A DNA stretch of 32,000 bases from positions 92,319 through 124,318 of the forward strand of contig NJBF01000005.1 of NCBI GenBank assembly GCA_003144275.1, read 5' to 3'. Below are positions 13,356 to 18,645 of the stretch, one piece after another. Source of the DNA: Candidatus Heimdallarchaeota archaeon B3_Heim (GTDB lineage Archaea; Asgardarchaeota; Heimdallarchaeia; Hodarchaeales; Hodarchaeaceae). How positions within the stretch are numbered: the stretch's first letter is position 1; the number at the start of each line of letters is the position of its first letter. Both the position numbers and the translations under genes were made by a program. A model generated the notes under the pieces. The model searched no databases, had not been told where the DNA came from, and saw nothing but the letters and a program-made list of their open reading frames with translations.

Positions 13356-16300
13356 TTAATACGTACTATCTGCTAAAACAATTTGAGGCTTTATTGTCAG
13401 AGCCATTAATTCCTGCAACAGCAATTTAAAAGCATAAGATATTGCAATCTTATAAATCCCAGTATCTACATTTCCACAAATACTGCAATAAGTTTGATCC
13501 TTTTTACGATCCCAAGTAGCGATGACACCACAGGTCTCACATATAAAGATCTCTGTTTTATCAGACTCCTCAAGTAATCGTTCTTTTAATAATAATGCCG
13601 CTCCGTGCCCAATCAAACAATCACGTTCCATTTCTCCAAATCTAAGCCCTCCTTCTCGCGCGCGTCCCTCTGTAGGCTGACGAGTGAGGATTTGAATGGG
13701 ACCACGTGCCCGTGCATGAATCTTATCAGAAACTAGATGATGTAACTTCTGATAATAAGTTGGTCCGATGAAAATTCGTGAGGGAAGTTTCTGTCCTGTC
13801 ATACCATCATACATAACAGATTCTGCGTATGGATGAAATCCTAATTTTCGTAATCTATCTCCAATATCTTCTGGATCTGGGGATTCAAATAGGGTGGCAT
13901 CAATTTGATTTCCTTCGTAACAAGCAACAATCGCACTCATACATTCAATAATTTGCCCAACAGTCATACGACTTGGAATGGCATGTGGATTAATAATTAA
14001 ATCTGGTACAATACCTTCTTCTGTAAAGGGCATATCACTCTGTGGAACAACATTTCCAATTATTCCTTTTTGACCGTGACGCGATGCAAATTTGTCACCT
14101 AATTCAGGTACTCGTTGATCACGAACTTTAATTTTGACAAGCGTACTTCCTTCAGAAGTTTCCGTTAATATTACAGAATCCACAATACCTTTCTCTCCAT
14201 GACGAATAGCAAGACTTGTCTCTCTTCGCTGGGGAGTGGCCGACTCAAATGAATCAAGTTCTATATATTCTTCTAAGAATCGTGGTCTGGAAGTTCGCCC
14301 AACTAAAATATCTCCTCCTCCAACTTCTATTTCAGGTTCAATGATTCCATCTACCTCACTTAAATGACGATAGACTTCTTTTGCACGATATCCTCTGACA
14401 CCCTTCTGTGGGATTTCAAACCTGTCTTCTTGTCCCCCTAAATATTTCTTCTCCTCACCCACATAAGAACGGAAGAAATGACTACGTGCTAGTCCTCTTT
14501 GGACACTGGCACGATTTAGAATAATTGCATCTTCAATATTATAACCTTGAAAACTAAGAATAGCCACTATAAAATTCTGTCCAGCAGGTCGATCGTTGAA
14601 CCCAATAACTTCCATAGGTTTACTACCAACTAAAGGAATTTGGGGAGCTTGTAAGATATGAGCACGACGATCTGTTCGGAAATAGAAGTTTGAAGCATAT
14701 AATCCTAGAGCTTGCTTTGTCATTCCCGCTTCATATGTATTACGGGGAGATTGATTATGTTCTGCATAAGGAATGATTGAAGCACATATACCTAAAATTG
14801 CTGATGGAGAAATTTCTACATGAGTATGATTAGATTCGATATCATCTAACGTCATGGCAATATAAGAATTTTCTTCTTCCTCTGCATCAAGGAATTCAAG
14901 TACACCTTCTCTTAACAAATCTGAAAACTTAATATCTCCCTTCCTTAACTTCTCAATGTGGCCCATTTTCAGTCTTGGAACTGAGGGTTGATCAGATTTT
15001 TCAGAAGGATCAAGGATAATAAGTGGTCTACGTACACGTCCTTCATCTGTATTGATTGAAATAACATGATTTTCCTCGAAATAAGCAAGATTGATTTCAT
15101 GATATAGTTTATTAGTTCTTCTAGCATTCCTAATTATTGTAAAAGTTTCAAGTGGATCTCTAGTAGTACCAATAAGATTTCCGTTTAATAAAATCTGAAC
15201 ACCTTGATGATCAATGGCTTCAGCAACTGGAATAGATTTACAATTTTGATAGATAAATTCTTTAACTGGTTCGTCAGGTGTACCGATTGAAATATACGCT
15301 TGCATCGCGAGATTTTTCACTAGTCCACAATTGGGACCTTCTGGTGTTTCATTAGGACATATCTTACCCCAATGAGTGGCATGTAAATCTCGAGCCTCAA
15401 AGTGAGCCTGACTTCGGATAAGAGGGCTAATAACTCGCCTAAGATGACTGTAGGTAGACATGTAATTAGTACGATCTAATAATTGTGACACTCCAGCTTT
15501 CCCACCTACCCAATTACCTGTCGCGAGAGCATGCCGAATTCGTTCAGTAATAACATCGGCTCTCATGGCTACACGTAAATTGGGCAATTTACCTCTTCTC
15601 GCGCCTTTTTCCAGTTGATACTTAATATCACGATATAGGGAATGGAAGGCAACGCGGAAGAGACTTGTTAACATTTCACCAGCAAGTTTTAATCGTTTAT
15701 TCGCATAATGATCTTTATCATCAGCTTCAATCCTTTTTAAATTTAGTTTAATTACTTTTAGCGCCATTTGAGCAAGATAAAGTGCTTTTTGTTTTCGGTA
15801 ACTAGCATTCTTGCCTACGTGCGGTAGGAGATAATTATCTAACACCTGTTTAGCTCGTAGAATTCGATATTGGCGAGTTTGTCCCACGGCAACTCGTTTA
15901 CCAATAAAATCTAACGCTTCTTCCTGATCTACAATTTCTGCAGCTTCTCGTAATGTAGGTAATAACTCCTGAATTAGCTCAGGATCATTACTGACTAAAT
16001 TAGCGATATCTCTATCTATTGTAACCCCCAATGCCTTGATTAAGACAGCTAAAGGAAGAGGTCTTGGAACACTGAAGAAATTTACAAGTAATCGTCCATC
16101 CTTCCTTCTCTGAACAGATACCAAGGATCGAAAACCTGCTACGGTGCTGAATACTTTAGCTACCGCGGTTGTAGAAGATCCTTTCCTTCCTTCATCAACT
16201 AATACACGATTTGAAACTAAATATTCTTGAGTTACAATTACTCTTTCTGATCCATTAATTATGAAATAACCACCAGGATCTTCAGGATCTTCTCCTAATC

Positions 16301-16727
16301 GTGTAAGTTCGTCAGTGGATAGGTTGTGTAATAAACAAGAATTTGATTTTAACATAATTGGTAATCTACCAATGTATGCAACAATAACTTCCTCCTCCTT
16401 CTCAATTCCTGCATCGACATATACAGGTCGCATTTTCAGATTCAAAGGAGCTGAATAAATTAAATTTCTCACTCGTGCTTCCATGGGAAATATGGTTCGT
16501 TCAGAACCGTCAGCTTCCCTCACAGAAGGCTCTCCAACTTCAATTCCCTCCAGTTTTACATAAAACCCTTCAATATCCGGTTCAATCTTGGGTCTTTCCT
16601 GAACTATTTCATTCAGTTTCTTTTCGACGAATTCATTGAAGGAGAAAAGATGTTGCCTTACTAATCCAAATTCATTATACATGGATTTAAGGACTTCCCA
16701 CTTATCATCATTAGTCAATTGTTCCAC
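13356..16727 (-). CDS. rpoB: RNA polymerase subunit B (Rpo2), unsplit
   Basis: GGYFIINGSERV, CPNETPEGPNCGLVKN, GDKFASRHGQKG, NPHAIPSRMT, GGLRFGEMERD, C-terminal zinc ribbon; 1123 aa. Confidence 0.99.
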   Translation of the reverse strand: MEQLTNDDKWEVLKSMYNEFGLVRQHLFSFNEFVEKKLNEIVQERPKIEPDIEGFYVKLEGIEVGEPSVREADGSERTIFPMEARVRNLIYSAPLNLKMRPVYVDAGIEKEEEVIVAYIGRLPIMLKSNSCLLHNLSTDELTRLGEDPEDPGGYFIINGSERVIVTQEYLVSNRVLVDEGRKGSSTTAVAKVFSTVAGFRSLVSVQRRKDGRLLVNFFSVPRPLPLAVLIKALGVTIDRDIANLVSNDPELIQELLPTLREAAEIVDQEEALDFIGKRVAVGQTRQYRILRAKQVLDNYLLPHVGKNASYRKQKALYLAQMALKVIKLNLKRIEADDKDHYANKRLKLAGEMLTSLFRVAFHSLYRDIKYQLEKGARRGKLPNLRVAMRADVITERIRHALATGNWVGGKAGVSQLLDRTNYMSTYSHLRRVISPLIRSQAHFEARDLHATHWGKICPNETPEGPNCGLVKNLAMQAYISIGTPDEPVKEFIYQNCKSIPVAEAIDHQGVQILLNGNLIGTTRDPLETFTIIRNARRTNKLYHEINLAYFEENHVISINTDEGRVRRPLIILDPSEKSDQPSVPRLKMGHIEKLRKGDIKFSDLLREGVLEFLDAEEEENSYIAMTLDDIESNHTHVEISPSAILGICASIIPYAEHNQSPRNTYEAGMTKQALGLYASNFYFRTDRRAHILQAPQIPLVGSKPMEVIGFNDRPAGQNFIVAILSFQGYNIEDAIILNRASVQRGLARSHFFRSYVGEEKKYLGGQEDRFEIPQKGVRGYRAKEVYRHLSEVDGIIEPEIEVGGGDILVGRTSRPRFLEEYIELDSFESATPQRRETSLAIRHGEKGIVDSVILTETSEGSTLVKIKVRDQRVPELGDKFASRHGQKGIIGNVVPQSDMPFTEEGIVPDLIINPHAIPSRMTVGQIIECMSAIVACYEGNQIDATLFESPDPEDIGDRLRKLGFHPYAESVMYDGMTGQKLPSRIFIGPTYYQKLHHLVSDKIHARARGPIQILTRQPTEGRAREGGLRFGEMERDCLIGHGAALLLKERLLEESDKTEIFICETCGVIATWDRKKDQTYCSICGNVDTGIYKIAISYAFKLLLQELMALTIKPQIVLADSTY

Positions 16728-16959
16728 GAGATAGACCTCTTCTAGTCTTCGTTTGAGTTTATTCTAGGGAAAAACTGGATAAGCATAGAGAATTGTATAA
16801 ATCAACGTCATATTCAATAAAACACATAGCTCAAACCTCAATGGTCATATCTTCTTGGGAAAGCTACTTGATGCTGATTTTTAATGATAACTTTTCATAT
16901 CATTTGCAGGGCTTATCAACGAAGGCAGATACACCAACTTAGCTGTGAATTTATATCTG

Positions 16960-17074
16960 ATGACTAAAGTTATCAGCCAACTCTTTTAAAAGAATTCTGG
17001 ACAAGAGGAGTCACACATCCTCTATCGGGCAGACCAGATACATTGGAAGGTACACTACCAGTTGGGACTACTTG
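16960..17074 (-). ncRNA. Putative TnpB omegaRNA scaffold (3' portion), outer element
   Basis: Overlaps the tnpB 3' end and runs to the TCAT terminus; homologous to the inner copy. Confidence 0.45.
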
Positions 17075-17194
17075 GGAATCAATAGTTACACTTTGAAGAA
17101 TATAACGAAAGGCATTGTGATCGGTGTTTAGACAAAAACCGCAACCCTGACAGCAGAAGGAACCACGCAATTTTCGATTCTGTTTTTTCACATG
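16973..17194 (-). pseudogene. tnpB: tnpB fragment 2 (second zinc knuckle, RuvC-III, C-terminal tail)
   Basis: HVKKQNRKLRGSFCCQGCGFCLNTDHNAFRYIL...GLPDRGCVTPLV*; joins fragment 1 in frame (TGT GGT|CAT GTG). Confidence 0.85.
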
Positions 17195-17549
17195 ATCATT
17201 TTTGTCCGACAAAGCAATATTTCTCGTATTCGCTGACCTCTCTCTCACACAACCTTAAAAGGACTCCCTCCCTTACTTCTTCAACCCCGAGGTGATGACT
17301 AAAATATTTCCTTCGCGCCCAGGGTCTATTCCCTTGTAACTACGTTAGACGAGTTACCCGTCAAAGGCAAGAGAGTTATGGCCCAACCTGGTTGAAATTC
17401 ACTAGTGTTTGAGATGTCGCAGTAAGATCTGATTCAAGTAGTCCCAATGGAGGCATACATTCTCTTGTTGCTAACCTGCCGGATAGCGGATGTGTGACTC
17501 ATCCTGTCCAGAACTATTTTCCAAATAGTTGTCTGACAAATCTAGTCAG
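17194..17549 (+). mobile_element. Non-autonomous IS200/IS605 derivative (PATE/MITE-like, 356 bp) inserted antisense into the tnpB remnant
   Basis: Removing it restores the tnpB frame with no target duplication (1-bp boundary ambiguity). Subterminal palindromes TTTGTCCGACAAA (left) and TTGTCTGACAA (right); ends in TCAG; last 115 nt homologous to the outer right end. Confidence 0.72.
17435..17549 (+). ncRNA. Putative TnpB omegaRNA scaffold (3' portion), inner element
   Basis: 115-nt homology to 16960-17074 (minus strand) with hairpins preserved; by established TnpB biology the omegaRNA derives from the element's right end. Confidence 0.5.
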
Positions 17550-17550
17550 G

Positions 17551-17637
17551 ACCACACTTACTACATTGTTAGGAGGTATATGCTTCGTTAACACGCACTA
17601 CAGTAATCCCAACGAGTTTAGCTTTATACTCAAGCAT
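17551..17637 (-). pseudogene. tnpB: tnpB fragment 1 (RuvC-II-distal helix, xNExYTS motif, first zinc knuckle)
   Basis: Manual translation MLEYKAKLVGITVVRVNEAYTS*QCSKCG, a typical TnpB LEYKA/VNEAYTSQxCSxCG segment with one in-frame stop. Confidence 0.88.
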
Positions 17638-17748
17638 TTTGCCTCAACAATCACAATATTCTAATTTCTGCTGAAAAATCAACTTAGTGAAATAATAATG
17701 ATCTATCTTTATCTGTAAATTTGTGGAAATGAAGGAAAGTATCTTTAA

Positions 17749-18645
17749 ATGAGTATAATTGTTGAATATCTTTTACAAGCTTTATTTTGGGGCGTTATTT
17801 TCAATTTTCCCTTATTATTCATAATTATCAAAATAAAATTACTCACCATGCCAGGAGGTATTCTAACAGGGGCAACTATTGCTATTATGACTTATATTAT
17901 TTCACCATTTCTTTGGTGCGCTTTATTAGCGTTTTTTCTAACATCCTCACTAATTTCAAAACAGAGCACACCTCAGAAACAGATGATTATAGCTGAATTT
18001 TCAAAAGATTCCACACGTGATGCCATTCAAGTGCTATCAAATAGCCTTCCAGCTTTATTTTTCGGAATCATATTTTTATCGATTGATTTCTTTCCATTCA
18101 TTGAAAATTCTGGTAATTTTTCCTTTTTATCTGTTTCTCCATTGATATATGCAGCATTTGCGTCACTGGCAACGCATAATTCCGATACATGGATGACTGA
18201 AATAGGAATCAGCACATCAAGTATACCCAGGCTTATAACTAATCTTAAGAAAGAAGTACCAAAAGGTACAAGTGGAGGAGTGACACTTAAAGGCACAAGT
18301 GCCGGAATAGTAGGTTCTATGATTATATCATTTATATACTTATTACAATTATTACTTCATTCTGATATATCACTTATTCATATGATAGTTCAGTTCATTT
18401 TCTTAACTTTCGCAGGTACATTAGGTGGTCTTATTGACTCTTTTGAAGGGGCCACGATCCAAGGATTATATTATTGTGAACACTGTCAGAAAGTAACTGA
18501 AAGGCAAATTCATAGATGTGGAAATAAAACAAATTTTTTCAAGGGATATCGTTTAGTGACAAATGACCTTGTGAATATCAGTTCTGCACTATTCAGCGGA
18601 ATTATCGCTCTAATTGGATTCTCAATAATTGAGGGAATTTTCTAG
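17749..18645 (+). CDS. DUF92 / TMEM19 family membrane protein
   Basis: RDAIQVLSN, SDTWMTEIG, PRLIT...GTSGGVT..G, DSFEGATIQ, CEHC..HRCG, NDLVN. Confidence 0.92.
   Translation: MSIIVEYLLQALFWGVIFNFPLLFIIIKIKLLTMPGGILTGATIAIMTYIISPFLWCALLAFFLTSSLISKQSTPQKQMIIAEFSKDSTRDAIQVLSNSLPALFFGIIFLSIDFFPFIENSGNFSFLSVSPLIYAAFASLATHNSDTWMTEIGISTSSIPRLITNLKKEVPKGTSGGVTLKGTSAGIVGSMIISFIYLLQLLLHSDISLIHMIVQFIFLTFAGTLGGLIDSFEGATIQGLYYCEHCQKVTERQIHRCGNKTNFFKGYRLVTNDLVNISSALFSGIIALIGFSIIEGIF

Follow-up and report, generated by a model that had tools for sequence, protein, structure and literature searches.

The locus studied here raises the question why a non-coding element sits within a tnpB sequence, and whether the guide RNA that it would carry there, antisense to tnpB, makes it a parasite of its own helper family or the product of an ordinary insertion. 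The former had been proposed in an earlier, sequence-only reading of the window, i.e., of the whole stretch of 32,000 nt that was analysed. We consider the latter the best explanation and assign it a probability of about 0.78. That is, the insert is most likely a gene-less, internally deleted derivative of 1.4-kb tnpB-only elements of the IS200/IS605 type that was nested by an ordinary insertion and carries a homing-type guide.

The locus and its two nested elements

The region lies between the gene of archaeal RNA polymerase subunit B (rpoB; 13356-16727, minus strand; seven Rpb2 Pfam domains) and the gene of a DUF92 membrane protein (17749-18645, plus strand). This intergenic region contains two nested elements, namely a tnpB remnant on the minus strand and the insert on the plus strand. 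The rpoB promoter region directly adjoins the remnant. In the following, G000 denotes the genome that holds the window and G013 its sister genome. The nested arrangement comprises the following features:

16959..17194, minus strand: host tnpB remnant, 3' part, i.e., second half of the zinc ribbon, C-terminus and degenerate right end (TTGGCTGATAA ... TAGTCATC)
17191..17194, plus strand: CATG target and predicted TAM, directly 5' of the left end of the insert
17195..17550, plus strand: 356-bp non-autonomous mini-element (PATE type), multi-copy, exactly missing in G013 and in contigs of the metagenome runs X1-X3
17551..17570, plus strand: predicted flank-derived guide ACCACACTTACTACATTGTT, antisense to the QCSKCG codons of the tnpB remnant
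17551..17636, minus strand: host tnpB remnant, 5' part (LEYKAKLVGITVVRVNEAYTS, stop, QCSKCG), with an in-frame TAA at 17569-17571 and a truncation point near 17636

First, we studied the host. No complete ORF with a RuvC domain was found for it; about the last 105 codons are left, including the in-frame TAA. The 3' part translates as HVKKQNRKLRGSFCCQGCGF...NAFRYI...LPDRGCVTPLVQN from 17194 down to 16976 and is followed by the degenerate right end, whose boundary (16959-16962) was set by genomes without the remnant. The zinc-ribbon/TNB domain PF07282 scores 45.5 bits on the interrupted remnant and 64.9 bits on its uninterrupted ortholog in G013. The insertion point is a CATG within the zinc-ribbon codons GGT CAT GTG of this tnpB fragment.

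The insert is a non-coding repeat that starts with ATCATTTTTGTCCGACAA and ends with CAAATNTAGTCATG. When its copies are aligned with their flanks, the edges are sharp and the flanks unrelated; one G is ambiguous, and the comparison with metagenome contigs gives a 2-nt ambiguity. The length of 356 bp given by the sequence-only reading is confirmed by empty sites, while the edges had to be moved by 1 nt to 17195-17550, such that the guide is read from 17551. The absence of a credible ORF also holds: the sole open frame has no start and is what remains of the TnpB C-terminus, and an element of 356 bp is too short for a transposase gene. Likewise, the right end was correctly recognised as homologous to the end of the host element. 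Positions 17443-17548 (plus strand) are 73-77% complementary to 16961-17065, which forms the minus-strand right end of the host remnant, so that the two are in inverted orientation; a separate BLAST match gives 76% over 122 nt.

Insertion history

Next, we compared the locus among related genomes. Three congeners (G031, G018, G003) show neither element. Their alignments stop at 16956-16962 and resume at 17634-17645, with 47-66 nt of other sequence between. G013, which is 96-97% identical at the locus, holds the remnant only; it reads TTTTTTCACATG directly followed by ACCACACTTACTACATTGTTAGGAGG, and its empty site is CACATG followed by ACCACACTTACTACATTGTT, i.e., scarless with a single CATG. 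G000 represents the filled site (remnant and insert). In addition, contigs of runs X1, X2 and X3 (three studies, marine sediment and cold seep DNA) pass directly from 17193 to 17550 and thus skip exactly 356 nt; the filled junction was observed in one contig of a fourth run, X4. G013 was possibly assembled from one of the metagenome samples, so that the empty-site sources are not necessarily independent.

Given that the empty sites read CACATG followed by ACCACAC..., the insertion was exact and is recent. The three locus states across the genus imply an order of events: insertion of tnpB, loss of its 5' part and of the frame, and finally insertion of the PATE, which the sequence comparison places after the split of G000 and G013. 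Since the empty allele in G013 shares both the truncation and the in-frame TAA, the host tnpB was dead before the insertion.

Compared with the more distant congeners (L052, L053, L054), the remnant (16959-17636) took the place of an ancestral rpoB-DUF92 spacer of about 47-66 nt. The truncation therefore also took away flanking DNA.

Derivation from tnpB-only elements

To describe the origin of the insert, the following parts are distinguished:

17201..17213, plus strand: left subterminal palindrome TTTGTCCGACAAA, presumed TnpA hairpin, also present at the left ends of tnpB-only elements
17253..17262, plus strand: TATA-like box CCTTAAAAGG; the alignment pairs it with GCTTATAAGAG, which full-length elements carry about 35 nt ahead of the start codon of tnpB
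17289..17297, plus strand: GAGGTGATG, in the left-region alignment the remains of the ribosome-binding site and start codon of tnpB; relics of the first codons come next
17320..17389, plus strand: internal structured block, a RuvC-I coding relic (NLVTTSDGLLVKG), core hairpin at 17336-17357
17426..17550, plus strand: right end together with an omegaRNA-like module; the homologous sequence in group-A tnpB ORFs is their last ~117 nt
17529..17539, plus strand: right subterminal palindrome TTGTCTGACAA

G000 holds about 11 intact tnpB genes (417-432 aa; PF01385 and PF07282), for which the closest database relatives are annotated TnpB proteins of Candidatus Hodarchaeales (Asgard archaea). One group carries the hairpin of the mini-element at both ends (C69, C44, C57, C8, C61 and two copies cut by contig ends). 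Its members start with CATG followed by ATCAAATTTGTCYGACAAC and end with ...TTGTCTGACAAATNTAGTCATG, and their ORF reaches or passes the right end. Both the hairpins and the terminal ..TAGTCATG are identical on mini-elements and tnpB-only elements. For the second group, which consists of six intact tnpB genes of 426-427 aa (G000 C82:50686-51963, C48, C38, C61:21581-22858, C63, C96), BLAST of the loci plus 400 nt flank gave no match to the mini-element.

Three pieces of the mini-element are colinear with the 1.4-kb tnpB-only elements. The left one aligns with the leader of tnpB, including the TATA-like box, which is a possible promoter judging from this alignment, and the start-codon relic. Positions 126-195 of the mini-element match the RuvC-I stretch, which full-length elements carry about 570 nt upstream of their right end, and its last ~117 nt match the tnpB 3' end. 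This colinearity shows that the mini-element arose by internal deletion, the feature by which PATEs are defined (PMC3119063). The further marks of a PATE are also found, i.e., palindromes near both ends, no ORF, tnpB-related ends, no target duplication and strain-specific insertions. The assignment by the sequence-only reading to a non-coding mini-element of the IS200/IS605 (tnpB) type with subterminal palindromes and an omegaRNA-like module is thus borne out by homology. A left-end fragment on C78 was considered as a longer parent element and rejected, as it is a degenerate fragment beside a paralogous gene start.

Copies, target motif and mobilising enzyme

A BLAST search with the unit in its own genome (3.95-Mb assembly, 94% complete) yields 47 matches, about 17 of which are full length with 65-88% identity; G013 contributes 12 copies. 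This repetition is far beyond chance. Shorter derivatives also occur, down to ~145 bp and ~31 bp. At least one other copy is common to G000 and G013 with identical flanks, while the copy at 17195-17550 is not.

The family ends read, from left to right, CATG followed by ATCAWWTTTGTCYGACAA ... TAGTCATG. CATG forms the left flank of 25/32 left ends in G000 and of 10/12 in G013. The motif is therefore CATG and not, as the sequence-only reading had it, CACAT or ACAT. The copy studied here ends in TCAGG rather than the TCATG of the rest of the family, i.e., with a T>G change in the terminal motif, and may no longer be excisable.

Right ends terminate in the family's own target, CATG, so that each right end recreates an insertion site. 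On C82 (62614-62640; L034), a right end is directly followed by ATCAAATTTG, the start of another left end. Units of about 31 bp ('solo hairpins'; CATG followed by ATCAAATTTGTCTGACAATTTTAGTCATG) occur as well; G000:C8:64500-64531 and C35:1463-1494 are listed beside the C82 site.

With regard to the mobilising enzyme, we searched for Y1 TnpA (PF01797). A Y1 TnpA was found neither in G000 nor in G013. Among 21 congeners, matches were limited to a copy with a stop in G018 and a fragment in G012, neither of which adjoins the family hairpin. TnpA-type loci in G018, G012, G020 and G021 come without the TTGTCYGACAA hairpin and thus provide no link to the family. A serine recombinase was rejected; the one candidate is a small resolvase on contig C2 that adjoins no tnpB. 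Given that no Y1 TnpA was found in G000 and G013, mobilisation can be assigned to none of the enzymes found; by analogy, the same paradox appears in Haloquadratum (PMC3119063). Still, lineage-specific insertions are observed for the about 11 intact tnpB genes and for dozens of derivatives that lack genes.

The CATG found on both sides of most copies, together with a genome without Y1 TnpA, could also be read as the trace of a MITE-like element. Such an element would be moved by a non-Y1 transposase that duplicates 4 bp (CATG), and the guide logic would be void. This reading conflicts with the ends, which do not form an inverted repeat; instead, the palindromes recur in direct orientation on the same strand. 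Furthermore, copies with a left flank other than CATG (C88b TAGG, C8 CATA, C57 TCTG, and L039 of G013 TCTG) nevertheless terminate in CATG, which shows that this CATG is the element's own and no target duplication. Finally, the ends are common to tnpB-only elements typical of IS200/IS605. We regard a MITE-like origin as very improbable.

Conserved structure

We then studied whether the conserved parts of the family fold. The alignment of right ends comprises 29 distinct modules from gene-less copies, tnpB-bearing copies and the host remnant. Two helices are found, with compensatory changes in nine pairs. Within these, 96% of the cells are paired, compared to 29-55% when the partners are slid, and 62 cells are double-changed vs. 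20 in shuffles. The invariant core CCGGATAGCGGATGTGTGACTCATCCTGTCCAGAAC does not differ between gene-less and coding copies. By homology, the module is placed where an omegaRNA is expected, i.e., it abuts the right end, overlaps the tnpB 3' end and is followed by variable flanks. The structure fits an omegaRNA scaffold, and the covariation would also be compatible with a role as single-stranded DNA.

A second structured region is found within the RuvC-I block. Synonymous codon identity among the intact tnpB genes is about 0.5-0.6 in the background. Two regions rise above it, namely codons 205-222 (0.83-0.95) and the 3' end (0.86-1.0), and the internal pieces kept by the mini-elements are precisely these two. 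The RuvC-I block (about 60 nt) folds into an outer helix around two hairpins, where 5/7 outer pairs show compensatory changes among gene-less and coding copies and 93% of the cells are paired, compared to 36-48% when slid. All gene-less derivatives keep this block; further instances are L023:915-984, L019:948-1017, L026:2101-2170 (minus strand) and L027:2098-2167 (minus strand). It could represent a distal RNA domain, a regulatory site or a DNA signal. Its position is far outside the usual omegaRNA scaffold.

Single-sequence RNA folding of 17320-17570 is no better than shuffles (z = -1.28), and an Rfam search of the region yields no family match; the only hit is DUF805b at E = 0.49 in the host remnant, which is at chance level. 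A consensus fold of the whole element pairs the left with the right palindrome and 17225-17238 with the GGATAGCGGATG core; it shows one-sided changes only and was not relied on.

IS200/IS605 transposition acts on folded single-stranded ends. The conserved stems might hence be signals of single-stranded DNA for transposition (TnpA binding, strand choice) without any guide RNA, which would make the family plain PATEs and the copy studied here an inert fossil. The covariation is blind to RNA vs. DNA, and both the z-score of the RNA fold and the right end mutated to TCAGG agree with such a role. Against this stands the extent of the conserved module, which reaches at least 117 nt inward from the right end and sits where omegaRNA scaffolds lie in characterised TnpB elements. 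Its invariant core is moreover the same in tnpB-bearing and gene-less copies, and the tnpB leader with the TATA-like box is retained. Overall, we judge a purely DNA-based role to be unlikely, if worth keeping in mind.

The predicted guide and its targets

Finally, we evaluated whether the guide of the nested copy points to helper genes. For TnpB systems, the guide is read from the sequence past the right end, and the transposon target doubles as the TAM (Meers 2023, PMC10055086). Applied to this family, the rule predicts the TAM CATG and the guide ACCACACTTACTACATTGTT. The sequence-only reading had rightly noted that this flank is the antisense of tnpB, namely of the QCSKCG codons of the fragment, and had expected an uninterrupted allele with the motif and a perfect target. 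Such an allele exists: CATG with an exact match to the guide is found only at the orthologous empty site in G013 and in the metagenome contigs. Since this exact match is the orthologous empty site, it represents the normal donor-joint target. Furthermore, any sequence past the right end serves as the guide, and the antisense tnpB guide predicted at 17551 is thus a by-product of the landing site. Every family member is built such that its guide matches the uninterrupted insertion site (donor-joint homing), and such a match is no evidence of hyperparasitism.

The hyperparasite reading goes further. It holds that the nested guide directs a TnpB in trans to cut uninterrupted helper tnpB genes, such that the element homes into its helper family or suppresses it. 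Given that the guide is antisense to the conserved QCSKCG codons, near-matches in other tnpB genes do occur, and intact TnpB proteins would be on hand in trans. None of the intact tnpB genes in G000, however, carries CATG with a full guide match. The best target in the element's own genome (C69) combines CATA with a mismatch at guide position 9. C44 shows CATA with two mismatches, and C57, C61 and C8 have three mismatches and no CATG; overall, the intact targets in G000 other than C69 show 2-4 mismatches next to CATA, CACA, TGTG or other non-CATG motifs.

The closest case is an intact tnpB of 428 aa in the sister genome (G013:C133), where CATG is followed by 19/20 guide bases. Its single mismatch is at guide position 1, directly beside the TAM. 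TnpB is reported to need a matched TAM-proximal seed of about 12 nt (Karvelis 2021).

In addition, the host was already a dead fragment before the insertion, and only 1 of about 29 full-length copies is nested in a tnpB (1 of about 17 in G000, 0/12 in G013). This is no enrichment, and we thus rejected insertion preference as evidence for targeting. With no intact tnpB of G000 that offers CATG and a matching seed, we consider an anti-helper function very improbable. The same holds for a related reading, in which a PATE that landed in tnpB gained a guide against a conserved zinc-finger stretch and could cut incoming or paralogous tnpB genes with a CATG at this place; we would be surprised if this applied.

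Proposed course of events

Taken together, the preferred reading of an ordinary nested insertion with a homing-type guide suggests the following course. The deletion derivative retained the left end with its hairpin, the tnpB leader with the possible promoter, the RuvC-I block, the omegaRNA-like 3' module and the right-end hairpin. It inserted directly 3' of a CATG, the usual way of the family, into a truncated, stop-bearing tnpB fragment. Its RNA, if made, would be bound in trans by one of the about 11 intact TnpB proteins. After excision, the complex would cut the rejoined empty site (CATG plus ACCACAC...), and the copy would be restored by recombination. This corresponds to ordinary homing that would spare the active helper genes. 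Transcription, binding by TnpB in trans, cleavage, and mobilisation by a Y1 TnpA from outside the assembly are what we infer for this course.

The locus thus provides a natural record of how the TnpB family behaves in Asgard archaea. Its three states (empty, remnant, remnant plus PATE) yield base-exact boundaries, the CATG target and a predicted guide-target pair from genomes alone. It also restates an old puzzle, i.e., recent insertions with TnpA missing. The second folded tnpB block that is kept by the deletion derivatives may represent a hitherto undescribed component of the guide RNA or be involved in its control. The locus does not demonstrate a parasite of a new kind. If the anti-helper reading were true, the element would either drive itself into its own helper family or hold this family in check, and would be a transposon that naturally captures a 'spacer' against another mobile element.

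Comparison with known systems

The insert is most likely an omegaRNA-bearing PATE, a kind of element already described (Dyall-Smith 2011; Meers 2023) and found here in an Asgard archaeon. PATEs are core-deletion derivatives of IS605-type elements, and 12 nestings of a PATE into an IS605 element are reported for Haloquadratum (Dyall-Smith 2011, PMC3119063); such nesting is common among haloarchaea. They often encode omegaRNAs that TnpB uses in trans (Meers 2023, PMC10055086). A literature search on orphan or nested omegaRNA elements gave nothing relevant. New are the three-state insertion series, the lack of a Y1 TnpA, and the second structured block from the RuvC-I coding region.

As in the PATEs of Haloquadratum walsbyi (HqIRS families, e.g., HqIRS71; PMC3119063), the elements are gene-less, lack terminal inverted repeats and duplicate no target. 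Near-terminal palindromes are common with IS605/IS1341-type elements, a terminal oligonucleotide is conserved, the origin is a core deletion, and strain-specific insertions are seen though IS200-type transposases are missing or broken. Unlike the Haloquadratum elements, the family resides in an Asgard host (Hodarchaeales), uses a CATG target and retains three colinear pieces of its parents (leader, RuvC-I, 3' module). The Haloquadratum work of 2011 predates the guide-RNA concept.

The elements of Meers 2023 (PMC10055086) likewise hold no protein genes, provide an omegaRNA for a TnpB in trans and take the guide from the right-end flank. In them, TAM and transposon target are the same motif, and the guide directs cleavage of the scarless donor joint; for the Asgard family, this is a prediction from sequence. 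In contrast, they are bacterial, have an identified TnpA and are experimentally active, while the Asgard family is known from sequence only and no TnpA was found for it.

Compared to the IS1341 group (tnpB-only; TnpB/omegaRNA units of the ISDra2 type), the parents agree in being tnpB-only, in an omegaRNA region that overlaps the 3' end of the ORF, and in the domains PF01385 and PF07282. They differ in three respects: the Asgard ORF reaches or passes the right end; the TAM and the terminal motif of the right end are the same tetranucleotide, such that every right end remakes the target; and the Asgard tnpB holds a second synonymously constrained region inside its ORF.
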